A DNA stretch of 37,979 nucleotides from a virus, in the IMG/VR virus record IMGVR_UViG_3300017913_000351, positions 1-37,979 of that record. One strand, given 5' to 3'. This document shows, piece after piece, positions 4,532 through 37,979 of the stretch (the stretch's first letter is position 1; every line of letters begins with the position of its first letter). Under the pieces are notes generated by a model. It searched no databases and was not told the DNA's origin. It saw nothing but the letters and a program-made list of their open reading frames with translations. The position numbers and the translations under genes are program-made.

Positions 4532-7500
4532 ATGTCCCAGACGATTAAGCTAAAGCGGGGTACTACTACCCCGACTACTAGTAACATTGTAAGCGGCGAG
4601 GTGGCGATTGATACGTCGGCTCAGAAGCTTTACATCAATGACGCTGGGACAATCAAGGAGATCGGGGGCGGCTTAGGCTCAATCTCGGTCTCTGACGTTC
4701 CTAACCTACCTGCCTCTAAGATTACGAGCGGCACGTTTGCAGCGGCGCGTATACCTAATATATCTGGTGCAAAGATTACGTCCGGGACGGTAGCAGCGGC
4801 TCGCATTGCTAATTTAGCCGCATCTAAGATCACATCCGGTACGTTTGCAACGGCTCGTATACCAAGCTTGGCGGCAAGCAAAATCACGTCTGGCACTTTT
4901 GACGCCGCACGCATACCTAGCCTAGCGGCAAGCAAGATCACGTCCGGTACATTTGATGCGGCCCGTATTCCTACGTTAGACCAGTATGTAAAAACTGCTG
5001 GCGACACAATGTCTGGAAGGCTCGTCATTGAAGACTCTAGCGGCGGAGACGGCAGTTGGACGGGCGGAATATTAATTGACAATACGGCCACCGATGCTGG
5101 CGAACCAGCAATTGCCTTCCAAAACTCCGCAATGGGGTCTAATTACTGGATTGTCGGATCTAATCAAGACAACGAACTGCACTTTTCTTATGGCACCGTA
5201 TTCCAAGATGGCAATACAAAACTAAACTTAAAAAGTGACGGTAAGCTGGGCGTAGGGACAGGTGCGAATGCTTTAACTCACAAGTTTAACGTTACAGGCA
5301 CATCACTTTTAGACGGAGCGGTGCATGTAGCAGAGCATCTGTACCATGCCGATGACACAAACACGTATATCCGGCTTGAGAACGATCAAATCTCAATCGT
5401 CGCGGGAGGAACGACTAAGTTCCACAGCAGTAACACCTACCTAACAACGTCATCTACCATTAATGCCGACACAGTAGATAACCTACATGCGACTTCGTTC
5501 CTGCGCTCTGATGCGAACGATACGGCTACCGGGCAAATAACTATCAGCAATACTGCTGACGCTCAACTAAAACTAACGTCCCCCAGTTCTTGGACAGGCA
5601 TTGGGTTCAATGACTCTGCCGCCGCAGGCTATCAATACATCTGGCACAACGGTGAGCACGGCACATTTGCTATTGGTGGTGGAGGCTCTAACGTATCCGG
5701 CAAAAAACTACACGTAGATGGTGGTATGACCGTCGGTGCCAACATGGACAGCACGGCTACAAACGCAAATGGCTTAACTGTTGAGCAAGACGTAACAGCT
5801 AAGGTTTTTGTAGATAGAGACAATTCTGCGTACTACGTCAATCCAGCAGGTTTACAGCGCCAAGACCAGATTTATGCTAACTGGGTAGGCATCGGCACAA
5901 GCAACAACACGTCGGGAAGCTACAAGCTCAACATGGGCGGCTCCATTGACATGAACAACAACCACGTTCATTACATCAATGAAGCACATTTTAACGGTGG
6001 CTCACGATTTAAAAGTGATGGTGGCGAAGGTCTAATCCTTAGATCTGGTAGTGCCAGTGTTTCTAAAATACGGCTTGGTACGAACAGTGATACGGCTCGT
6101 GGGTACTTGTATGCGAACAGTTCTAATGAAATTGGTTTATTAGACAGTGACCACCAGTGGGCGATCCGGCACTCACGCGACAACTACACTGAATTCCGTA
6201 TCAACAACAGTGTTAAGGCGTACCTGAACAACGACCAGTTCTACCACACGTCTAGCATCCGTTCGCCAATTTTTTACGACAGAAACAACACCAACTACTA
6301 CTTCCACGGTGACAGTGAGTCGCGTCTTGCAAACGCAAGGGTGGAGCGTTACTTCCAGTGGGCGCATGGTAAGCCGACCAACAACCTCGGCGACCCAACT
6401 GTCACTGAAATGGCGTTGTTTGATGAGCAGTTCAACAACAAGACGCTCGAACACGCTACAAGCAAAGTAACCTTCTGGCGACAGCAAACCAGTAGCAGTT
6501 CGTGGACTGAGTACACAGCAGTATCAGACAGTGAAAAGAAACAACTACTCCGAGGCGCTGCCACCTCTAGCCTGTCGATCCCTAATCTTGACTACAAGTT
6601 CCGCATCGAGGTAGACGCAGACGGATATACTTTTGCTAACGCTCTGTATATGTACTGGTCTAGCAACAGCCACAACACGCAGGTTCATATCTACAAGCGA
6701 CGGTGTTCTGATAACGCGTGGATTCAACATACCAGTTCTAGCACCACTGTAAGTAGCTGGCCCGGACATTTGTACCTGCCGTTTTCCAACATCCCGTGGC
6801 ACGAGACAAACACAACGTCTACAGGTCACTTTAACCGGATTCGTATTGAATTTATCCCCAACTGGTCTGGTCACGCTGATTACGGCGACCGTGTTATTAA
6901 CTTGTACAAGATGCAGATCTGGGGCGGCTACCCAGCAGGACGCAGGACGCCGTACTACTACGATGAGAACTTGCAATACTTCTTCCCGCAGAATATTCAG
7001 GCGTACCGCTACTATGACCGTGACAACACGTCTAAGTATGTAGACCCAGCAGGTACATCTGAACTAAGTCACTTGAATGTGGCAAACAACATCACCGCCA
7101 GCGGCAACATTACGGGCGCTCGTGCAGCGTTTGGCGGCACAGCGCTTGGCTCTGGCGAAGACGTTCGTTTAGGCGGCATCCGTGGCAGGTTCTCTAACGA
7201 GCTGATTCACCTTTATAACCGAGTTAATATCGGCTACCCGAGCGGATGGGCTGGGCAAGGTGCACCTAACTACGGGCTGTCAACGCACGGCGGCGCTCAG
7301 TTTAACGTCGGAAATGTGAGCGGTGCTCCATTCACCTTTAATGGGCACACTATCTGGCATGCTGGTAATGATGGTTCCGGTTCCCAGTTGGATGCCGACT
7401 TGCTAGACGGGTTACAGGGTTCCTTCTACTTTAAGTCCTATACAAACAATAATGGCGGCTGGTCTCAGTCCAACAGAAATTTCAGTGTAAGAACTGGCGG

Positions 7501-10324
7501 TAATGCCGCTGGTCTACACATGGAAGAGTCTGACGGTACGTTTGCATTCCAGATATATGGCGACGGTGGAACGTATGGATTCTTAGATGGCGAGTGGGCT
7601 AACTGGGATATTAAGAAAACGAGAAACGGTACATTCCACGTTGACGAAGGCAGCGGTCTAAAGCGTGTTCTTAACGAAGCCAACTGGTCTAGCTATATAA
7701 CAATCCCGACTTCATTACCTGCCAACGGCGGTAACGCAGATACAGTTGATGGGCAACATGCTTCTGCTTTTGCCCCTGCGGGCGGGTCGCTAAATACTAA
7801 CTTCAACGTAAACAAGCTGACCGCAGACTCAGGGGCGAATATCGTTTCTACGTCGGCGAACCCGTTCCGTTGGCAACGAAGTGGAACTGGGCAAACAGGT
7901 CAAGACGATAACGTCACCGTGTTTGTAGATGACTCAAACATCTACTTTACACATAACAATGACGCCGATGGAGACGCATCGAGCTTCCACTTCCGCTACA
8001 CCGCTGGTGGTAATGCGGTCACGATGACCACGATCAATTCGGATTATTTGCATCACTCCTCTGATATCCGTGCGCCCATTTTCTACGACACAGGGAATAC
8101 CGGCTACTACGCAGACCCCAACGGAAACTCACGCTTGTACCGTAGTCACCTTGACTACATAGGTGTCGGCGCTGGTGCAAACAGCTCAGGTTCCTACCGC
8201 ATCAACATGGGCGGTTCGATTGACATGAACGCCAACAACATAGACTACGTTAGTCAGTTGCACTTCAACGACAACGTCCGGTTCTATGATGACGGTAACG
8301 ACAATTACCTTAACTTTAAGTACGGCGACGGCAACTACGGCGGCATCGTAGTTTATAACGGAGGCGGTACTCGCAAGGGGTACTTGTACGCCGACAACAG
8401 CGGCTTTGGTCTGCTAGACAACGACGGTCATTGGGCGCTTCGTACTCAGACAGGCACAAACCCTCTTGAGTTACGCTGTGACAACAACGTCGAATTTCAA
8501 GTCTTTAACTCGTACACGTTGTCGCCCGGATCGTCTCGTGCGCCTGTCTTTTACGATAGTAACAACAGTAGCTACTACGCTAATCCAGCGTCAACGTCTA
8601 ACTTTAATGCCCTAAACGTAGGCGGTAGTCCTGTATGGACAAGTGGTAACGACGGTCCCGGCTCTGGGTTAAATGCCGACCTTTTAGACGGACTTGACCT
8701 GCATACTGGACGGAACAACAACGCAAATAAAGTTGTCCGAACTGACGGTAATGGCTACATACAGGCTGGTTGGATCAATACAACTAGTGGTGCGACAACT
8801 AATACATTAGACAGAATTTACGCTTCTAATGATGGATACATTCGTTACGTAACACCTGCGACTCTAGGCTCGCAACTTAGTTCGCATATCAATTACAACA
8901 ACATCCAGAACAAGCCAACCATACCAGACACGAGCAACCTTGTTACTACCAATACTGCTCAGACAATCTCTGGTGCTAAGACGTTTACTGCAAACGTAGG
9001 TGTAAGCGGAAACATTAGCGCAAACTTCTATGCCTTTAACGGGGCGTACGTTAATGCTACGGCTGATGTACGTGCACCGATTTATTACGATAGAAACAAC
9101 ACAGCTTTTTACATACACGCTGACAGTGAATCGGTACTAGGAAACGTAAGAGCAAACGATTTCCGCTTGTCATCAGGTAATGGCAAAGGTGTACGTTTCT
9201 GGAACAGCAACTCATACAAAATCTATATGTCGTCTACTGGCGATAGTAGCTGGGGCGGACGCGCACCTTACGAGTCTACGTCTGACTACAATATGTACTT
9301 CCGCATGACAGGAGGCACTAACCGTGGTTTTGTGTTCCGTAGCGATACCACCAACGTAGCAGGTATTGACTCTTCCGGTAACTTCAACACAAGCGGAATT
9401 GTTAAAACGGGCAATGGCGCGGCTAGTGCACCAGCTTATTCGTTCACTGCTGACTACGACAGCGGAATGTTTAGTATAGGCAGTAACGCAGTAGGGTTCT
9501 CTACCGGTGGTACTCAAAGATTTAAGATTAACGCTAACGGTCTGTTGTTGACCGGCACTTCATCTCTGTACGTCAACGGTCAGCAGACGATTACGAATAC
9601 TCGCGACATTATGAATGTCGTCAACTACCAGAACACCGATGGTCACATGCAGTTGCACCGCACCGGCGCGGCTCCTTTGATTATTAATCGAAAAGGAACT
9701 ACTGGGTCTTCTGGTACGAGTCGCGGAGAGATACTTAACTTTAAGTCTGCATCTACCAAGATTGGACGCATCGGTTATGCACAGCCTTATGGCGGTTTGC
9801 TTTATTTTGCTACAGGCAACACGTCAGGTTACGGCGTAGGTGTTTATCACTTTTCAACTTCATCAGACCTTCGCCCAGTAACCCATACTGGAGCAAACAA
9901 CGACAATGCTATGGACTTGGGCGCTACGTCTGCTCGATACGATGACGTATACGCTACTAACGGTACGATTCAAACGTCAGACCGTAATGAAAAACAGGAC
10001 ATACAGGCACTAACTGACGCTGAGACACGAGCAGCTACTGCATGTAAGGGGCTGATCCGTAGATTCCGTTGGGTAGACTCTGTTGCAGCAAAAGGCGATG
10101 ACGCTCGTTATCACTTCGGTGCCATCGCACAAGACGTTGAGGCAGCGTTTATCGCCGAGGGACTAGACGCCGGGGACTATGGTCTCTTTATACGAAGCAC
10201 ATGGTGGGAGCACGAGGGGCACTCGTACCCAACAGCAGAGGCAGCACCTACTGGGGCCGTCGAGAAGACTCGGCTGGGTATCCGATACAATCAACTCTTT
10301 GCATTCATTATCAGCACCCTTTAA
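4532..10324 (+). CDS. Giant tail fibre (1930 aa) with an N-terminal anchor, 5 x 18-aa repeats, duplicated modules, a putative carbohydrate-binding insertion and a C-terminal S74 intramolecular chaperone.
   Basis: Single uninterrupted ORF. Fibre motifs include ADTVDGQHASAF, DADLLDGL and R[AS]P[IV]FYD.NNT.YY. The C-terminus reads TSDRNEKQDI...RYHFGAIAQDVE. Confidence 0.9.
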   Translation: MSQTIKLKRGTTTPTTSNIVSGEVAIDTSAQKLYINDAGTIKEIGGGLGSISVSDVPNLPASKITSGTFAAARIPNISGAKITSGTVAAARIANLAASKITSGTFATARIPSLAASKITSGTFDAARIPSLAASKITSGTFDAARIPTLDQYVKTAGDTMSGRLVIEDSSGGDGSWTGGILIDNTATDAGEPAIAFQNSAMGSNYWIVGSNQDNELHFSYGTVFQDGNTKLNLKSDGKLGVGTGANALTHKFNVTGTSLLDGAVHVAEHLYHADDTNTYIRLENDQISIVAGGTTKFHSSNTYLTTSSTINADTVDNLHATSFLRSDANDTATGQITISNTADAQLKLTSPSSWTGIGFNDSAAAGYQYIWHNGEHGTFAIGGGGSNVSGKKLHVDGGMTVGANMDSTATNANGLTVEQDVTAKVFVDRDNSAYYVNPAGLQRQDQIYANWVGIGTSNNTSGSYKLNMGGSIDMNNNHVHYINEAHFNGGSRFKSDGGEGLILRSGSASVSKIRLGTNSDTARGYLYANSSNEIGLLDSDHQWAIRHSRDNYTEFRINNSVKAYLNNDQFYHTSSIRSPIFYDRNNTNYYFHGDSESRLANARVERYFQWAHGKPTNNLGDPTVTEMALFDEQFNNKTLEHATSKVTFWRQQTSSSSWTEYTAVSDSEKKQLLRGAATSSLSIPNLDYKFRIEVDADGYTFANALYMYWSSNSHNTQVHIYKRRCSDNAWIQHTSSSTTVSSWPGHLYLPFSNIPWHETNTTSTGHFNRIRIEFIPNWSGHADYGDRVINLYKMQIWGGYPAGRRTPYYYDENLQYFFPQNIQAYRYYDRDNTSKYVDPAGTSELSHLNVANNITASGNITGARAAFGGTALGSGEDVRLGGIRGRFSNELIHLYNRVNIGYPSGWAGQGAPNYGLSTHGGAQFNVGNVSGAPFTFNGHTIWHAGNDGSGSQLDADLLDGLQGSFYFKSYTNNNGGWSQSNRNFSVRTGGNAAGLHMEESDGTFAFQIYGDGGTYGFLDGEWANWDIKKTRNGTFHVDEGSGLKRVLNEANWSSYITIPTSLPANGGNADTVDGQHASAFAPAGGSLNTNFNVNKLTADSGANIVSTSANPFRWQRSGTGQTGQDDNVTVFVDDSNIYFTHNNDADGDASSFHFRYTAGGNAVTMTTINSDYLHHSSDIRAPIFYDTGNTGYYADPNGNSRLYRSHLDYIGVGAGANSSGSYRINMGGSIDMNANNIDYVSQLHFNDNVRFYDDGNDNYLNFKYGDGNYGGIVVYNGGGTRKGYLYADNSGFGLLDNDGHWALRTQTGTNPLELRCDNNVEFQVFNSYTLSPGSSRAPVFYDSNNSSYYANPASTSNFNALNVGGSPVWTSGNDGPGSGLNADLLDGLDLHTGRNNNANKVVRTDGNGYIQAGWINTTSGATTNTLDRIYASNDGYIRYVTPATLGSQLSSHINYNNIQNKPTIPDTSNLVTTNTAQTISGAKTFTANVGVSGNISANFYAFNGAYVNATADVRAPIYYDRNNTAFYIHADSESVLGNVRANDFRLSSGNGKGVRFWNSNSYKIYMSSTGDSSWGGRAPYESTSDYNMYFRMTGGTNRGFVFRSDTTNVAGIDSSGNFNTSGIVKTGNGAASAPAYSFTADYDSGMFSIGSNAVGFSTGGTQRFKINANGLLLTGTSSLYVNGQQTITNTRDIMNVVNYQNTDGHMQLHRTGAAPLIINRKGTTGSSGTSRGEILNFKSASTKIGRIGYAQPYGGLLYFATGNTSGYGVGVYHFSTSSDLRPVTHTGANNDNAMDLGATSARYDDVYATNGTIQTSDRNEKQDIQALTDAETRAATACKGLIRRFRWVDSVAAKGDDARYHFGAIAQDVEAAFIAEGLDAGDYGLFIRSTWWEHEGHSYPTAEAAPTGAVEKTRLGIRYNQLFAFIISTL
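4706..4975 (+). repeat. Five tandem 54-nt (18-aa) coding repeats, consensus LAASKITSGTF.AARIP.
   Basis: Fibre aa 59-148 form 5 consecutive units. The copies differ mainly at synonymous positions. Confidence 0.9.
9977..10324 (+). other. Peptidase S74-type intramolecular chaperone auto-processing domain. Predicted cleavage is N-terminal to Ser1816.
   Basis: The motif QTSDRNEKQDIQAL (Ser-x-x-x-x-Lys dyad context) is followed by FRW...YHFGAIAQDVEAA, as in endosialidase and fibre C-terminal chaperones. Confidence 0.75.
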
Positions 10325-24156: not shown

Positions 24157-24180
24157 GGGCCCTTCGGGGCCCTTTTTTTT
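24157..24180 (+). terminator. Rho-independent terminator after the capsid gene.
   Basis: GGGCCC-TTCG-GGGCCC followed by T8. Confidence 0.85.
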
Positions 24181-24194
24181 AATTGGAGTTAGTT

Positions 24195-27825: not shown

Positions 27826-27842
27826 GTTGCAATACTTGCAAC
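27826..27842. promoter_or_regulatory. Perfect palindrome GTTGCAA-TAC-TTGCAAC, a candidate operator overlapping the -35 element.
   Basis: 7-bp arms with a 3-bp spacer. The right arm contains the -35 hexamer of the predicted early promoter. Confidence 0.6.
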
Positions 27843-27864
27843 ACTCTCCCCGATAGCCTAATAT
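27836..27864 (+). promoter_or_regulatory. Sigma70-type early promoter.
   Basis: TTGCAA, a 17-nt spacer, then TAATAT. It sits in the 79-nt gap after the lysis genes, about 36 nt upstream of the first early gene. Confidence 0.65.
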
Positions 27865-27899
27865 TCCTTTGTGCAATTCCGCACTTAGGGAGACAGGCT

Positions 27900-29592: not shown

Positions 29593-29824
29593 ATTGGCAG
29601 CAGAGCGATTCTGTGAGCTTCTGAGGGATTCCTCTGACTCGTCAGGCTTGCACCTAGCACGGCAGCTCGGTGTGCCTAGATCGACGATATGGCGCTGGAA
29701 ACAGCGCCTAGATTCCGTGGATACAATCGGAATGTTGGCGGACTACTTCAAAACAACACCATCAGACTTTCTAAAGGGAGAAAGATATGAGCAACACAAA
29801 CAACCAAAAAAAGCGAATCCTTAA
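29573..29824 (+). CDS. Cro/XRE-type HTH regulator (83 aa).
   Basis: LARQLGVPRSTIWRWKQ ... LADYFKTTPSDFL is typical of HTH_3-type proteins. Confidence 0.6.
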   Translation: MTTSPSKLAAERFCELLRDSSDSSGLHLARQLGVPRSTIWRWKQRLDSVDTIGMLADYFKTTPSDFLKGERYEQHKQPKKANP

Positions 29825-30020
29825 GTTTCTTGAGGAAGGCGGTGTACTCGACAGGGTCGTCGCCTATTACGAGCTGGGCATATGGGAGGCACCAGCACGC
29901 ATCTGGGATCTCCGGGATGACGGCCATGACATTCACACCGAGATGGTGGAGGTCACTAACAGATTCGGGGAAACGACTCGCATCGCAAATTGGACGCTAA
30001 AAAATAAGGCCCCCAAATAG
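29787..30020 (+). CDS. Winged-helix/HTH protein (77 aa), HTH_39-like.
   Basis: SD agggaga. The pattern KRILKFLEEGG.....A..ELGIW.APARIWDLRDDGHDI resembles small phage HTH proteins. Confidence 0.5.
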   Translation: MSNTNNQKKRILKFLEEGGVLDRVVAYYELGIWEAPARIWDLRDDGHDIHTEMVEVTNRFGETTRIANWTLKNKAPK

Positions 30021-30028
30021 GGGGCCTT
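30006..30028. other. GC-rich hairpin AAGGCCCCC-AAATA-GGGGGCCTT overlapping the stop codon.
   Basis: 9-bp stem. An A-run lies upstream (a T-run on the minus strand) and there is no T-run downstream on the + strand. Confidence 0.6.
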
Positions 30029-30084
30029 AAGGGAGTCTTGTCTTGACTAAGGGAGGTCGTGACAAGTAGTCTGAAGTCGGCTAA

Positions 30085-30344: not shown

Positions 30345-30719
30345 ATGATTATTTTAAAAAACGGAACGTACTACCAACCAACTGATGAGGACATCATCAA
30401 GTGGCAACGAGCTTACGAGAACATCAATGTTCACAAAGAGCTGGAAGCTATTGCTAACTGGTGTGACGCAAACCCAGCAAAAAGAAAGACGAATGGTGCT
30501 CGGTTCTGTGTTAACTGGCTCAAGCGAGCTAACGATGGCGGAGGGTCACCGTTTGCCAAGAAGCAGTCAGAGCAAACTGGTACAATTAGCACCCGGGATA
30601 TGGAGCTTGAGGATGAGCTGTATCACGACTTTCTGGGGACGCATCAGGAATATTTTCTCACTAAGTACGGCCGCTGTTTCACCAAGGCCGGGGAGAGGGT
30701 AACTCGTGAACAGTCATAA
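30345..30719 (+). CDS. Conserved early protein (124 aa), possibly replication-associated.
   Basis: SD aaggtg lies upstream of ATG 30345; the track starts at GTG 30339. The motif ANWCDANPAKRKTNGARFCVNWLKRA recurs in phage replication-module proteins, from memory. Confidence 0.6.
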   Translation: MIILKNGTYYQPTDEDIIKWQRAYENINVHKELEAIANWCDANPAKRKTNGARFCVNWLKRANDGGGSPFAKKQSEQTGTISTRDMELEDELYHDFLGTHQEYFLTKYGRCFTKAGERVTREQS

Positions 30720-31092
30720 TTGGGTAGTAAATAACGAGCTGCAAGCGCGTGAGCTGTGTAACTACATCATGGCGAACGTCGATAAAAAGCTTACCTACAC
30801 GATCAAGCCAGAGCAGCGTACAGCGCAGCAAAACAGAGCTATACACGCGTACTGCAGACACGTAGCCCGGGACATGGAGGCGCATGGCATCGATATGCTA
30901 GAGGCGCTTACCTTGCCGATCTCACCAACAATGGAGACGGTCAAGATGCTTATGTGGGGGAGAATACAAAAGGTGATGTTCGATAAAGACAGCACTGCAG
31001 AGTTAGAGCCAGCCGAGGTAGATCAAATCTATCAGGTCATGGCGCGCCACCTGATCACAGCTCATGGCATCGATATACCGTTCGGTCGATGA
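30706..31092 (+). CDS. ninB: NinB/Orf-like recombination mediator (128 aa), GTG start.
   Basis: TYTIKPEQRTAQQNRAIHAYCRHVARDMEAHG aligns with lambda Orf VVTIQERNRSLDQNRKLWACLGDVSRQVEWHG. SD ggagagg. Confidence 0.6.
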   Translation: MNSHNWVVNNELQARELCNYIMANVDKKLTYTIKPEQRTAQQNRAIHAYCRHVARDMEAHGIDMLEALTLPISPTMETVKMLMWGRIQKVMFDKDSTAELEPAEVDQIYQVMARHLITAHGIDIPFGR

Positions 31093-31283
31093 AACCAAAA
31101 AGACGCTGCATCCACTGTAACGGTGCGATGATCCCCTTCTTCTACAATAAGCAGCCGTACCGATTGCAGGGCTTTAAATGCACCTGCGGAGTATGGGAGG
31201 CTGCAGTCTCTGATGAAAAACGGTGGACAATCGATGATTTCAAAACCAAAACCGAAAGCGAAGAAACAGAAGAGCGTAGCTAA
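31089..31283 (+). CDS. Zinc-ribbon ORF (64 aa) resembling the N-terminal part of NinG.
   Basis: ATGA-coupled to ninB. KRRCIHCNG...FKCTCG resembles the lambda NinG N-terminus (RRKCKVCG...). It overlaps the next ORF by 71 nt in a different frame. Confidence 0.5.
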   Translation: MKPKRRCIHCNGAMIPFFYNKQPYRLQGFKCTCGVWEAAVSDEKRWTIDDFKTKTESEETEERS

Positions 31284-31671
31284 ACTCCGGGATGAAGCGG
31301 CCGTTTTGCTGCAGAAGCTTGTGCGCATGAAGGCTGCAGATGCGGACGGCATAGCCCAGTGCGTAACGTGCGGCAAAAAGCAGCACTATAAAGAGATGGA
31401 TGGCGGACATTTCATAAGCCGCAAATGGACTGCCACCAAGCTCGTCGAGGAAAACATCCACGTGCAGTGCAAAGGCTGCAATCAATACGCTAGCGGCCGG
31501 TACGATGACTACTCGCTATATATGGTCGATACGTATGGCATCGAGATGGTGCGAGAGCTAAATGAGAAGAAGCGTGCGCTCTGTAAACAGAACCGCATCG
31601 AGCTTGAAGAGATGAAGTTAGAGCTACGCAGTCGCATCCGAGAACAAGAAAAACGTCTAGAGGGCGCATAG
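31213..31671 (+). CDS. ninG: NinG/Rap-like recombination endonuclease, C-terminal portion or short form (152 aa; an alternative in-frame ATG at 31234 gives 145 aa).
   Basis: The motifs CVTCGKK....DGGHFISRKW....EENIHVQCKGCNQ..SG match the NinG family pattern. Confidence 0.7.
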   Translation: MKNGGQSMISKPKPKAKKQKSVAKLRDEAAVLLQKLVRMKAADADGIAQCVTCGKKQHYKEMDGGHFISRKWTATKLVEENIHVQCKGCNQYASGRYDDYSLYMVDTYGIEMVRELNEKKRALCKQNRIELEEMKLELRSRIREQEKRLEGA

Positions 31672-31682
31672 GGGGTTGCAGA

Positions 31683-31725
31683 CTGTCTCATATTTTGAGA
31701 CACTATGTGTGTCGGGGATGTCCCG
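31683..31725 (+). promoter_or_regulatory. Conserved 43-nt regulatory element, copy A (two hairpins), 67 nt upstream of ATG 31750.
   Basis: 40/43 identical to 33220..33262. Contains GTCTCA-TATTT-TGAGAC and CGGGG-ATG-TCCCG. Confidence 0.7.
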
Positions 31726-31749
31726 TCGAGTCTTAAGGGAGACTACACA

Positions 31750-32160
31750 ATGGCTAACACTTACAAAATCATCATCGCTCAACTTCACGCTGCGGAGCGT
31801 GAGCTTTTCGAAATGGATATTGACCGTGAGACTGCAAACGCTGTCGTTGCGGCTTGGCCTGAGATCGACGCCGACGTCGATGCATGGTCTGACTATTATC
31901 AGAACAATCAGCAGGCAATCCGGGCACATAACCTTTACGGCAAGATCGATGGCCTCAAGCAGACTCTTGAGACGCCACTTGCAATGCCTCTTACTCGCTA
32001 CGTCATCACTGACGGACCTCTTGTATCGCCTGCTGGCTTTTCTATGGACTCTGGCGTCTATGTCCGCAATGACCATTGGATCGAAACCGATCGTCTGCCG
32101 CGCCATTGGGATGGCAAGGCTTACGACATGGAAAAAGTTCGCAAGGAAATGGCCGCATAA
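31750..32160 (+). CDS. ORFan early protein (136 aa).
   Basis: SD aagggaga lies 7 nt upstream of ATG 31750. The track ORF starts at 31705, inside the regulatory element. Confidence 0.65.
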   Translation: MANTYKIIIAQLHAAERELFEMDIDRETANAVVAAWPEIDADVDAWSDYYQNNQQAIRAHNLYGKIDGLKQTLETPLAMPLTRYVITDGPLVSPAGFSMDSGVYVRNDHWIETDRLPRHWDGKAYDMEKVRKEMAA

Positions 32161-32185
32161 GCGGCCTTCACTTAGGGAGATAGAA

Positions 32186-32485
32186 ATGGCTAACAAAGTA
32201 ACTTATGAATGGCGCGTCAACTTGTGTGACGAGTACGGCGACATCGAAGACTTTTATGTGTTCGATACCTACGCAGAGGCCCGAGAGCATGAGCGTCAGA
32301 CCCACGCACACGGCATTGACCTGCGGCAGTACACAGAGATCGAGCTTGGTCGTGATGAGTGGTGTGAGGATAACGGACTGCAGGACCGCGGGTACGCAAC
32401 CGTCAGTGATGACGGCGCACTACCTGAGCGCTTCTGCTGTGGTAACAAGGTTCCAGCTTACAAGAAGGCGGAGGTGCGACGATGA
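32186..32485 (+). CDS. ORFan early protein (99 aa).
   Basis: SD CACTTAGGGAGA lies 5 nt upstream. This is the C-terminal third of the spurious 269-aa track ORF 31676..32485. Confidence 0.65.
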   Translation: MANKVTYEWRVNLCDEYGDIEDFYVFDTYAEAREHERQTHAHGIDLRQYTEIELGRDEWCEDNGLQDRGYATVSDDGALPERFCCGNKVPAYKKAEVRR

Positions 32486-32715
32486 GCGACGGCAGCCTTA
32501 AAAACGTAATTCGTACATTGGAGTATGCCGGGCACCGGGCATCTATTTGCCGCGGCCCCGGTAACGCAATGTCCGTTCACAGATATAAAGGTGACGACTG
32601 GCTCGGCTCCAAGGTTTTCAATCGCAACCCGTACAGCTCTGCGTGGGGTCATCGCATGGTGGTTGAGCGTTATGCGGAGCAGTTTGTGTTTGGCGTACTA
32701 GAGGAGTCAGAGTAA
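32482..32715 (+). CDS. ORFan early protein (77 aa).
   Basis: ATGA-coupled upstream and TAATG-coupled downstream. Confidence 0.6.
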   Translation: MSDGSLKNVIRTLEYAGHRASICRGPGNAMSVHRYKGDDWLGSKVFNRNPYSSAWGHRMVVERYAEQFVFGVLEESE

Positions 32716-33218
32716 TGATTTTCAATTCACCAGTTGTGCCACAAAAGGGTTCTGAGTTTGCCGATGAATGGCACGTCACCGAAGTTTGGTATTGCGATCA
32801 CCCGGGGTGGATGACTTGGATGGTCACCTGCAAAGATGTAGATGGCGACTGCATCGGCGAGTCGGAGTATTACCATCTAAAGTCTGATGCTCTGCGCTGC
32901 GCTCGTGGCTACCTTAACTCAGGGCGCTGCAAGTTTATGTCAGTCGAAAAGAAAAACGGTGAGCAGCAGTACGTCGAGCCAAAGCCAGTGCAGCGAGAGA
33001 TCGAGGGCGTGTACTGGCGCACCTTCCCGGAGCGGCGTATGTCGAAGGTGCATCTCAGCTTTATTGACGAGGAAACACTCTGCGGCATCGCTACAGTTCA
33101 TAAGCCAAAAAAAGACGTCGAGTATCACCGGGAGTCACCTCACCTAGTCGACTGTGCAGCCTGCAAAAAAATAGCCCGGAGGATTGGAGAGAAGAAAATG
33201 CAAGAGTGGGGCTTGTGA
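32715..33218 (+). CDS. Cys-rich ORFan early protein (167 aa).
   Basis: TAATG coupling. It has 9 Cys, including CAAC near the C-terminus. Confidence 0.6.
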   Translation: MIFNSPVVPQKGSEFADEWHVTEVWYCDHPGWMTWMVTCKDVDGDCIGESEYYHLKSDALRCARGYLNSGRCKFMSVEKKNGEQQYVEPKPVQREIEGVYWRTFPERRMSKVHLSFIDEETLCGIATVHKPKKDVEYHRESPHLVDCAACKKIARRIGEKKMQEWGL

Positions 33219-33219
33219 T

Positions 33220-33262
33220 CTGTCTCATATTTTGAGACACTCTGTGTGTCGGGGGTTTCCCG
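33220..33262 (+). promoter_or_regulatory. Conserved 43-nt regulatory element, copy B, 68 nt upstream of ATG 33288.
   Basis: 40/43 identical to 31683..31725. It starts 2 nt after the upstream stop codon. Confidence 0.7.
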
Positions 33263-33287
33263 GCGCACGATTTAGGGAGAATCGGCT

Positions 33288-34127
33288 ATGAAAAATTTTT
33301 GGAATCACATGGAACAGCGCTTGATAGACTACGACCTCGCTCGCGAGCGTGGCATCAAGGCTTACGACACGCGTCTCCGTAACGCAGCGGCTAACCGTAA
33401 CGACGGCGCTGAGCCAAAGGTCTCACCATTGTCTGGCCGTATGCACGCGCCTTACGATGGCTACGTTTGGGTTTGGATGGAAGGCAATACTGAGTGTGAG
33501 GCTACGTACCTTGCTGGTCAGTACCTTCCTTATCCCAAAGAGCGTGAGTCGCTTTTCTCTGGTGATTTCACCGGGGACCATAGTGTAAGAGTGCCGCTAG
33601 AGCGCGCAGACAAGTTCATACGTATTTGGAAGAGCCTCATCGATCCATTGCACCTCGGCGTCGACGTTTGGCGCTCGCGTCACTGGGACACCGACAAGGG
33701 CCCTTTTTGTTTCTTCAGAATAAGCCGGTGCCCGCAGGATGTCATCAACGACGTCGTCGATTACTTGATTGGCGATATCCTGCGTGACAATGAGGCGGAG
33801 CGTCAGGCGCTGGAAGATGAGCGCGCTGCACGCGACAGTGCTCACGAGAACGGTCAAGATGCGCCGACTGGCCGCGTTGTGATCACCGGACAGTGCTTAC
33901 ACTTCAAGATGCAGGAGTCTATGTACGGCAACGTCGAGAAGATGCTCGTGCAAGATGACCGCGGCTTTCGTGTCTGGGGTACAGTGCCTCGCAGTCTCGA
34001 TGATGCTGAGCGCGGCAGTCGTGTCAGATTTATTGCTCAGATCACTGTGTCTGACGACAACCCTAAGTTTGGCTTCTTCAAGCGCCCAACTAAGGGCGAG
34101 GTGCTAACCTCTGAGGAGGCAGCATGA
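33288..34127 (+). CDS. ORFan early protein (279 aa) with a possible C-terminal OB-fold-like domain.
   Basis: SD ttagggaga. The C-terminal pattern GRVVITG....YGNVEKMLVQDDRGFRVWGTVPRSL...GSRVRFIAQITVSDDNPKFGFFKRPTK recurs in phage proteins, from memory. Confidence 0.6.
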   Translation: MKNFWNHMEQRLIDYDLARERGIKAYDTRLRNAAANRNDGAEPKVSPLSGRMHAPYDGYVWVWMEGNTECEATYLAGQYLPYPKERESLFSGDFTGDHSVRVPLERADKFIRIWKSLIDPLHLGVDVWRSRHWDTDKGPFCFFRISRCPQDVINDVVDYLIGDILRDNEAERQALEDERAARDSAHENGQDAPTGRVVITGQCLHFKMQESMYGNVEKMLVQDDRGFRVWGTVPRSLDDAERGSRVRFIAQITVSDDNPKFGFFKRPTKGEVLTSEEAA

Positions 34128-36899: not shown

Positions 36900-37979
36900 A
36901 TGCTTCGCAATCGCGCATCTGGCATTCTTGAAGAGCTATTTAGCTCTGCCAATTCGACGGAAGAGCTTATAAGTGAGTTGACGTATGACCGGGGATATCC
37001 GGGAGAGGTCGCTGAGAAGATCGCTTATGGTGAGCTTGATATGCGGCCCGGAGCTATCGCAGAGCGTAGTGCAGATTTTACTAAGGGCGACCCTACTGTT
37101 TATTTCCACGGCGGGTATATGCCTGCTAATCAATTTCGTGGCGACGGCGATTTAGTCTTCGCGACTCCAGATCCTTTTCTGGCTAACACCTATATACCAA
37201 ATAATGGGGCATTTAACGCGCTGAGTGGACAGCTTTACCCGTTACGCATAGACACGTCTGATTTTTTAAGGACAGACGCGCGCGGCGATAACTGGGGAAT
37301 GATAGAGCTGAACGACATTCTAGGCCCTGATGACAGTGTGTTATATCGTGGAGAGCGTGGCCGGTACTATGAGACCGATCAGCTCGGCGACATGGCAAGG
37401 CATAATAATTTCCCGGGCATTTTTATCGACAACGTAGTTGATGTCGGCGATAACTACCGAATAGCTAATAAAGCACTTCAAGATGCGCAGCACCCACTGC
37501 TTACACGATTTCAGTCGCTAGAAGATGGGTCAGATATAGTTGCTGTCAATGATCCTACTAAAGTTCGTTCGCAGTACGCCGCCTTCGATCCCGAATACAA
37601 AGGGCCTAATCTTCTCGGGGCAACTGCAGCCGCTGGTGTAGGTCTTGGTGCAATGGGTGCGTCAAATGACGCCATGAGCGCAGAAGAGCGCTACGGCACC
37701 ATAGAGCCCTATGAGCCCGGGATGGTCGAAGGTGCAGTTCAGAGTGTTGCTCAGTTCTTCAAAGACGCCGGGCTGACTGACTCCGATTACACCGCAAATC
37801 AAATGGCTGCGAGTCTATCTGATTTGGCAGATTTCACTCCGGTCGTCGGTGACGCTAAAGGATTCGCTGAGGCGCGTGATGCGTTCGCTGAAGGTGATTA
37901 TGGTGAGGCAGCGCTGTTAGGTGGCTTGGGCGTGCTTGGCCTTGTACCGATGCTAGGCGACGTAGCAGCCGGTGCTATC
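36900..37979 (+). CDS. N-terminal 360 aa of the wrap-around 689-aa protein: a putative ART-like (polyvalent-protein-type) domain, Gly-rich hydrophobic segments, and the start of a pre-toxin-TG-like motif.
   Basis: ATG 36900 has a GGAGG SD. The frame is open to the window end, so the ORF is absent from the track. Motifs are VYFHGG, LVFATPDPFLANTY, IVAVNDPTKVRSQYAAFDP and DFTPVVGDAKGFAEA. Confidence 0.85.
   Translation, partial: MLRNRASGILEELFSSANSTEELISELTYDRGYPGEVAEKIAYGELDMRPGAIAERSADFTKGDPTVYFHGGYMPANQFRGDGDLVFATPDPFLANTYIPNNGAFNALSGQLYPLRIDTSDFLRTDARGDNWGMIELNDILGPDDSVLYRGERGRYYETDQLGDMARHNNFPGIFIDNVVDVGDNYRIANKALQDAQHPLLTRFQSLEDGSDIVAVNDPTKVRSQYAAFDPEYKGPNLLGATAAAGVGLGAMGASNDAMSAEERYGTIEPYEPGMVEGAVQSVAQFFKDAGLTDSDYTANQMAASLSDLADFTPVVGDAKGFAEARDAFAEGDYGEAALLGGLGVLGLVPMLGDVAAGAI
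37839..37979. repeat. Terminal direct repeat copy 2, identical to 1..141.
   Basis: Exact identity read directly from the sequence. Confidence 0.95.

Follow-up and report, generated by a model that had tools for sequence, protein, structure and literature searches.

The window, i.e. the whole stretch of 37,979 nt of viral DNA analysed here, represents a closed genome in which bases 1-141 recur as 37839-37979, as in a circular or terminally redundant molecule of 37,838 bp. An ORF that crosses the end junction runs on into 88-1131. All plausible genes are on the + strand, and portal, scaffold, capsid, terminase and a 1930-aa tail fibre are encoded. The best match of the portal (46%) is to an Octadecabacter virus, with no near relative among cultured phages; in the INPHARED collection of cultured phages neither a near match to the 11-kb right arm nor a distant match to the 81-nt element described below was present. 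The ORFs of at least 306 aa, all of which were scanned, are structural, packaging or unassigned and none was found to be a phage RNA polymerase. As no ORF of that size matched such an enzyme, the host polymerase must transcribe the genome.

Several further features were recorded along the window. The tail fibre gene (ORF 4532-10324) has a 54-nt unit (18 aa) repeated five times in tandem near the N-terminal end of its product (4698-4971), as well as internal 80-nt repeats at 6260, 8537 and 9071; the C-terminal domain of the protein is a Peptidase_S74 intramolecular chaperone. The major capsid gene is followed directly by a canonical intrinsic terminator (GGGCCC-TTCG-GGGCCC plus T8) at 24157-24182. 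A 10-bp GC hairpin, TAAGGCCCCC-N5-GGGGGCCTTA, occupies 30005-30029, after gene 29787-30020, and past it, at about 30043, there is a possible promoter (TTGACT-18-TAGTCT).

The locus of interest follows NinB and NinG and includes two copies of a short repeat, four ORFans and the gene for a 279-aa protein, behind which come genes for small HTH proteins and then the terminase:

30706..31092, + strand: NinB
31213..31671, + strand: NinG
31683..31725, + strand: repeated element, copy 1
31750..33218, + strand: four-gene ORFan cassette (31750-32160, 32186-32485, 32482-32715 and 32715-33218), no family matches
33220..33262, + strand: repeated element, copy 2
33288..34127, + strand: 279-aa protein (phrog_4750)

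The family of the 279-aa protein numbers 147 cluster representatives and is very common in marine viromes; homologues at 28-32% occur in Pectobacterium, Pseudomonas, Alteromonas and Klebsiella phages, and there are matches in Microbacterium phage records. In an AF2 model (pLDDT 87) a long helix at the N-terminus is followed by a middle domain of mixed alpha/beta structure and, at the C-terminus, an OB fold; a fold search with it returned generic OB-fold matches only, weak ones to IF1, SSB and PriB (best E 1.6e-3). At the first gene junction of the ORFan cassette (32151-32166) another GC hairpin, GGCCGC-AUAA-GCGGCC, holds the TAA of gene 31750-32160 in its loop and is followed by UU and the next SD. 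Sequences 80-100% identical to it stand at unrelated gene junctions in other phages (L003 6763-6805, L007 3593-3631, L013 5827-5864, L025 363-392 and 1231-1249, and L004 upstream of 8001). For this second sequence, roles as an attenuator, as a 3' stabiliser or as a further recombination linker are conceivable.

A pattern search of the window recovered both copies of the 43-nt element where the preliminary description had placed them, on the + strand and 40/43 identical; none of 100 dinucleotide shuffles matched the pattern, so that no chance occurrence is expected. A covariance model built from 12 homologues scored the two copies at 74.7 and 63.4 bits and the next best site of the whole 37.8-kb genome at 13.7 bits, i.e. 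there is no third copy. One of the three differences between the copies falls in the spacer between two hairpins and two fall in the loop of the GC-rich hairpin. Copy 1 begins 11 nt past the stop codon of NinG (31669-31671) and copy 2 begins 1 nt past the TGA at 33216-33218, whereas the next ATGs (31750 and 33288) follow 67 or 68 nt after the copy starts, in agreement with the positions first reported. Folding likewise bore out the two hairpins that had been proposed, TGTCTCA-TATTT-TGAGACA (hairpin 1) and CGGG(G)-loop-(T)CCCG (hairpin 2), with a z-score of about -2.3 for the 43-mer with both hairpins. The flanking sequences had been regarded as unrelated except for GGGG.TTG. That string was found again, but a repeat search extended the similarity to 58 nt (84%; 31671-31728 / 33208-33265), so that it lies inside the repeat and, rather than being flank, contains the -35 box identified below. 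Rfam models run over the whole window at permissive thresholds gave nothing at the element and two weak chance matches elsewhere.

In order to sample relatives, about 165 loci were fetched around homologues of the 279-aa protein, the sequence of the element not being used in their choice; most of these loci lack the element. A scan of IMG/VR added 33 loci, for a total of 36 distinct copies (alignment A3) in 41 distinct element-gene combinations. The search of related genomes that had been proposed thus yielded homologous copies in related marine phage contigs. Every copy is oriented like the gene behind it, and the genes so preceded belong to more than 20 unrelated families. A first IMG/VR pattern, GAGACACTNTGTGTGTCGG, proved too strict and gave no matches. 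Because the pattern that had given the 33 loci demanded promoter bases, a second scan required only the GC hairpin and GGGA, and no promoter bases; it returned 34 loci, 32 of which also fit the independently scanned pattern TTG-N17-TG-NN-A-NNN-T. One of the two others, L200, is an unrelated GC-rich chance match. The second, L201, carries a consensus promoter (TTGACG-16-TAGAAT) 5 nt 5' of the same hairpin, leader and downstream gene. Among 185,579 species genomes the combined promoter-plus-hairpin pattern matched once, at L199 4592-4643 (NZ_JBHWOO010000210.1, a Luteococcus sp. MAG), in a GC-rich sequence with a palindrome of its own (ATACCCC-CA-GGGGTAT) and without SD or ATG behind it; either the match is fortuitous or the contig is mis-binned and holds a diverged relative.

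On the 5' side of the GC hairpin, conservation in the 36-copy alignment peaks at a TTG (31676-31678 / 33213-33215), a TG (31696-31697 / 33233-33234) and bases 2 and 6 of the hexamer behind it, the latter being an invariant A and T four bases apart (A 31700, T 31704 / A 33237, T 33241); one invariant C also stands in the spacer. These positions most likely mark a sigma-70-type extended -10 promoter of the form -35 TTGnnn, 17 nt, TGn, nAnnnT, and both copies can be laid out as follows:

31676..31681, + strand: -35 TTGCAG of copy 1, 17 nt 5' of the -10; its TTG holds 1.7-2.0 bits in A3
31684..31702, + strand: hairpin 1 of copy 1, TGTCTCA-TATTT-TGAGACA, over the spacer, the TG extension and the first 4 nt of the -10
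31696..31704, + strand: extended -10 of copy 1, TG (31696-31697) + n + GACACT (31699-31704)
31711..31727, + strand: predicted start G31711 and stem-loop GUCGGGG-AUG-UCCCGUC of copy 1, with U.U at the second of 7 positions
31728..31752, + strand: rest of the leader of copy 1, with hairpin AGUCUU-AAGG-GAGACU (31729-31744), SD GGGAG (31737-31741) and ATG 31750
33213..33218, + strand: -35 TTGTGA of copy 2, which includes the stop codon TGA of gene 32715-33218
33221..33239, + strand: hairpin 1 of copy 2, identical to that of copy 1
33233..33241, + strand: extended -10 of copy 2, TG + n + GACACT (33236-33241)
33248..33264, + strand: predicted start G33248 and stem-loop GUCGGGG-GUU-UCCCGGC of copy 2, 7 bp without mismatch
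33265..33290, + strand: rest of the leader of copy 2, with hairpin CGAUUU-AGGGA-GAAUCG (33268-33284) containing the SD, and ATG 33288 of the 279-aa OB-fold protein

The spacer measures 17 nt in 34 of the 36 copies and 18 nt in two (16 nt in L201), and the TG extension is present in all copies except that of L075, the -10 of which is TATATT. Among the -35 hexamers TTGCAC (12 copies), TTGCGC (8) and TTGTAC (6) prevail, with GTATAC in two clade-e copies. The -10 is TATCTT in 16 copies, GACACT in seven (both window copies included) and GACATT in five, and rarer forms in relatives are TATATT, TATAGT, GATATT and GATAGT, besides the TAGAAT of L201. In relatives with non-coding sequence upstream the stretch from -59 to -38 has 66% A+T against a background of 50%; in the window the same stretch is coding and has 41% and 55%. 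The window boxes match the consensus weakly, the -10 (GACACT) in three of six positions of TATAAT and the -35 (TTGCAG / TTGTGA) in three of six positions of TTGACA, and it is conceivable that an activator is required. A scan for consensus promoters and terminators (9-of-12 rule) missed the element and the obvious early promoter of the window alike and is uninformative, because both fall below its threshold.

This early promoter offers an internal comparison:

27826..27884, + strand: early promoter, -35 TTGCAA (27836-27841), 17 nt, -10 TAATAT (27859-27864)

Its predicted +1 (G27871), 7 nt past the -10, is the first base of a hairpin, GUGC-AAUUCC-GCAC (27871-27884). The layout is that of the element and occurs also in relatives, but the hairpin is not homologous to that of the element. 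The leader (TTGTGCAAT..CGCACT) is kept in L003, L170, L181, L182, L189 and L192. A perfect inverted repeat, GTTGCAA-TAC-TTGCAAC, spans 27826-27842 over the -35, and in clades a and b, too, a related inverted repeat covers the -35 of the early promoter.

In the element, the predicted starts (G31711 / G33248) are likewise 7 nt past the last T of the -10 and coincide with the first base of the GC hairpin. The start was predicted solely from this 7-nt distance; it leaves no unpaired 5' nucleotide, compared with two if transcription began at G31709 / G33246, and with either start the 5' end would keep to the limit of about 2-4 unpaired nt for a 5'-terminal stabiliser. Hairpin 2 is present as initially noted, but its helix is longer than had been recognized: G at +1 pairs with an invariant C at +17 and U at +2 faces G or A at +16, for 7 positions in all. 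Over the 36 copies 98.4% of cells are paired. The one-sided changes (C to U twice, giving G.U, and G.U to A-U once) all retain pairing in RNA, the U.G and U-A states occur in 21 and 11 copies, and double compensatory changes are absent from the 36 copies. The loop varies (AUG, GCG, GUU, GUG, AUA, UUG, CUG). Minimum free energy folds of the predicted leaders, which are 34-40 nt long in all 36 distinct cases, contain hairpin 2 in 29/36 and pair the 5' G in 28. The suggestion that the repeats could be conserved 5' leader RNAs is thereby borne out in part, the GC hairpin being a conserved structure of the predicted 5' leader.

Hairpin 1 is a different matter. It has 6 bp with 90% of cells paired, three pairs are changed on both sides between clades, and its form falls into classes that track the phage clades:

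Class a: TGTCTCA / TGAGACA, in the window and L003
Class b: GTTTCA / TGAGAC (U.G), in L013, L113, L190 and L192; GTTTCA / TGGGAC in L179
Class c: ATAACA / TGTTAT (three pairs changed on both sides), in 16 copies
Class d: GTGTCA / TGAGAC (G:G mismatch), in L007 and L183-L185
Class e: palindrome absent, in L145, L169, L180, L171, L086 and L075

In clade c the sequence ATAACA-N5-TGTTAT, identical to the palindrome of the clade's own element, also covers the -35 and -10 of the early promoter as a tandem pair 19 bp apart:

L181 8280-8315, L182 9524-9559 and L189 9867-9902: clade-c tandem palindromes

For the AT palindrome we put the chances at about even that it serves as the operator of a phage DNA-binding protein timing these promoters, and we regard a role as an RNA hairpin in read-through transcripts as rather unlikely; the operator is favoured because the same inverted repeat covers the boxes of separate promoters. 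Of the early proposal that the copies are protein-binding sites, this much stands, i.e. the AT palindrome is a plausible, predicted binding site. Further copies of the window palindrome are absent from the genome, where it occurs at the two elements only. A tblastn comparison of the early-region proteins of the window, including all small HTH proteins, with 46 loci linked no regulator cleanly to a palindrome class. Compared by eye, the spacing of the palindrome differs from that of the LexA (CTGT-N8-ACAG) and CRP (TGTGA-N6-TCACA) sites. As an intrinsic terminator hairpin 1 was rejected, with its AU-rich stem of 6-7 bp and no U tract.

Comparison with relatives indicates that the element is also a joint between exchangeable pieces of the genome. 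In L007 and L113 a single copy stands directly between NinG and the 280-aa gene. In L003 there are two copies, one after NinG and one before the gene upstream of the 280-aa gene, with different ORFs between them. The window is homologous to L113, L013 and L192 through NinG as far as 31725, and again from 33220 on, and the single element of these three phages aligns to both window copies. From this it follows that, relative to single-copy relatives, the window carries a 1537-bp insertion bounded by the repeat and consisting of leader 1, the four ORFans and promoter 2. Homologues of the fourth ORFan (32715) are found directly behind an element in L025 and L192. L201 has only window positions 31708-31767 in common with the window (92%), so that a different promoter appears to have been joined at the hairpin, and leader types occur with different palindrome classes. 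The element most likely marks points at which gene cassettes are swapped, as a recombination joint.

The reading that we favour, and hold to be probable, is that of an extended -10 promoter of host type that probably has an operator, and of a leader opening in a 5'-terminal stem-loop, the whole being reused as a recombination-prone cassette. The original idea of a promoter or leader was a sound one, the element being, on this reading, both. Host RNA polymerase with its housekeeping sigma factor would read each copy as a compact expression cassette and start transcription at G31711 / G33248. With the start at the first base of a 7-bp stem-loop the mRNA would begin fully base-paired, and the paired end would guard it against 5'-end-dependent decay (RppH / RNase E). 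Some 20 nt after the 5' stem-loop a small hairpin would present the SD, followed by the ATG; the distance of 67/68 nt would be fixed because promoter, 5' stem-loop, SD hairpin and ATG form one cassette. A phage DNA-binding protein on the AT inverted repeat may time the promoters. The core of about 45 nt could double as a homology patch for recombination, since it is nearly identical wherever it is present. For uncultured marine phages without a cultured relative this provides a working annotation of promoter and leader, predicts two exact transcription start sites and suggests a route by which the ORFan cassette behind NinG is expressed.

Against a generic stabiliser stands the near-invariance of hairpin 2 across clades, which exceeds what such a function needs and hints at either sequence-specific recognition or recent horizontal spread. 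The motif GTGTCGGGG-NNN-TCCCG is nearly invariant over three clades in which the NinG and 280-aa proteins are 33-60% identical or absent. The promoter being real, the GC hairpin and its flanks (GUGUCGGGG-NNN-UCCCGRC at the mRNA 5' ends) could hence be the target of a dedicated, sequence-specific trans-acting factor or could, as RNA, modify the polymerase in cis in the manner of HK022 put, and the promoters would form a small regulon. The absence of compensatory double changes from the hairpin agrees with this. The factor could be a host protein or the 279-aa protein encoded downstream of copy 2, whose predicted C-terminal OB fold is of the IF1 / SSB / PriB type and whose gene directly follows the element in five of the 41 distinct element-gene combinations; the weakness of that OB-fold match counts against it, and autoregulation through this protein, which the predicted fold leaves conceivable as a speculation, would be of low probability. 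The freely varying loop of the hairpin is also unlike the loops of boxB type that proteins recognise, frequent recombination through the element, as seen at the mosaic junctions, could equally account for the invariance, and the unrelated hairpin at the same place in the early promoter argues for a role that depends on position and is independent of sequence. Specific recognition of the hairpin is for these reasons quite unlikely. If it were true, the GUGUCGGGG leader together with the class-specific -10 palindrome would constitute a two-layer regulon (DNA operator plus RNA leader) that is mobile among uncultured marine phages.

Were there no promoter at all, the hairpins would be an RNA element of a read-through transcript, such as an RNase III or RNase E site, an intercistronic stabiliser or an antitermination site of nut/put type. 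Read-through is expected from the single-strand gene layout, both hairpins do fold, and hairpin 1 tolerates U.G pairs on the + strand (in clade b, with two in L179). The invariant TTG 7 nt 5' of hairpin 1 and the fixed 17-nt spacing would nonetheless go unexplained, as would L201, in which a consensus promoter replaces the upstream half. Hairpin 1 is moreover broken in clade d and absent in clade e, and in clade c the same palindrome lies over the boxes of the early promoter. The variable loop and the lack of any Rfam match speak against such an element as well, and by reading, no boxA-like sequence (CGCTCTT) is seen in 31672-31749 or 33219-33287. A pure RNA element is thus very improbable. 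The terminator scan of the window did not report the stem-loops of the element, and by the consensus scan there is no terminator-like site on the + strand within the cassette.

Even a little less plausible is a distinct promoter class that lacks a -10 and needs a phage factor, the interpretation first put forward, for which the region-4-like small proteins at 34124 and 34542 had been named as candidates. In its favour are the weak consensus matches of the window -10 and -35, the several small HTH proteins encoded, one with a sub-threshold match to Sigma70_r4 (21.4 bits vs a cut-off of 24.1), and the sharing of HTH genes 34124, 34542 and 34862 at 78-82% identity by the class-a genomes (window and L003). 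The TTGAGA proposed as its -35, however, is not conserved, reading GTGAGA, ATGAGA or TTGTTA in relatives, and consists of the TG extension and the first bases of the -10. The positions that are conserved match a sigma-70 promoter exactly, one register upstream, and relatives carry near-consensus -10 boxes, or even a full consensus promoter, before the same leader. The candidate factors, at 67-69 aa, are too small for sigma factors, and the element is present in clades without detectable homologues of the small HTH proteins in the stretches compared. Lastly, although the two window copies (40/43 plus GGGG.TTG) are closer to each other than copies from different genomes are, a neutral, functionless remnant of a recent internal duplication, which the preliminary description had allowed for, deserves practically no credence because the element is conserved in other phages, which hold at least 35 further distinct copies, conserved position by position, always in one orientation and at a set distance from the start codon.

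The promoter, operator and leader reading joins known kinds of element, namely sigma-70 promoters, 5' stabilisers and PeSL-like shuffling, and involves no new transcription mechanism. With the extended -10 (TGn) sigma-70 promoters of bacteria and phages the element shares the TG, the invariant A(-11) and T(-7), the 17-nt spacer and the TTG of the -35, although the window hexamer GACACT is a poor match and promoter function is in this case predicted. Promoters of phage-encoded RNA polymerases (T7-like ones and the hairpin promoters of N4) differ in requiring such an enzyme, none of which was matched in this genome. In lambdoid phages Q and pR' lie directly after the nin region, and the element likewise comes directly after NinB and NinG; unlike at the lambdoid late promoter, no Q-like protein was detected, the initial transcribed region shows no -10-like pause element, and a terminator downstream is lacking. 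Lambda nut and HK022 put have a conserved boxB loop or a large two-stem put structure, along with boxA and terminators further on that are to be overridden, whereas the loop of the element varies freely and no Rfam family matches it.

The leader hairpin of T7 phi10 is a 5'-terminal stem-loop stabiliser. In E. coli the classic shield of an mRNA from 5'-end-dependent decay is a stem-loop at its very 5' end (Emory, Bouvet and Belasco 1992; Bouvet and Belasco 1992; both as relayed in PMC3997798). The stabilisers of the ompA and papA 5' UTRs, as the same source presents them, have the stem-loop within about 2 nt of the 5' end and an accessible SD (Emory, Bouvet and Belasco 1992, via PMC3997798), and the element would show the same arrangement if transcription begins at the predicted start; a structural role of this type, however, needs far less sequence conservation than the element displays.

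The closest parallel in terms of shuffling is with the PeSL cassettes of T4-type phages, where an ORFan may lie between two PeSLs in one phage and a relative has a single PeSL (PMC2839356; PMC4122927). Like a PeSL, the present element is a conserved unit of about 60-100 bp that combines a stem-loop and an SD with a sigma-70-like promoter (Arbiol et al. 2010, PMC2839356; Comeau et al. 2014, PMC4122927). Copies of either one bracket ORFans within a variable region, recombination between copies being the presumed mechanism of shuffling, and both have an AT-rich region 5' of the sigma-70-like promoter, seen here in relatives. PeSLs belong to myoviruses of 170-250 kb with dozens of copies, whereas the element occurs in one or two copies in uncultured marine phages of about 38 kb. 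The stem-loop of a PeSL is a terminator upstream of the promoter; those of the element lie in the spacer and -10 and at the predicted +1 to +17, and have no U tract. The element would thus extend the idea of a regulatory unit that is at the same time a recombination joint from T4-type myoviruses to small marine phages, with a different internal layout in which the stem-loop forms the 5' end of the mRNA and not an upstream terminator.
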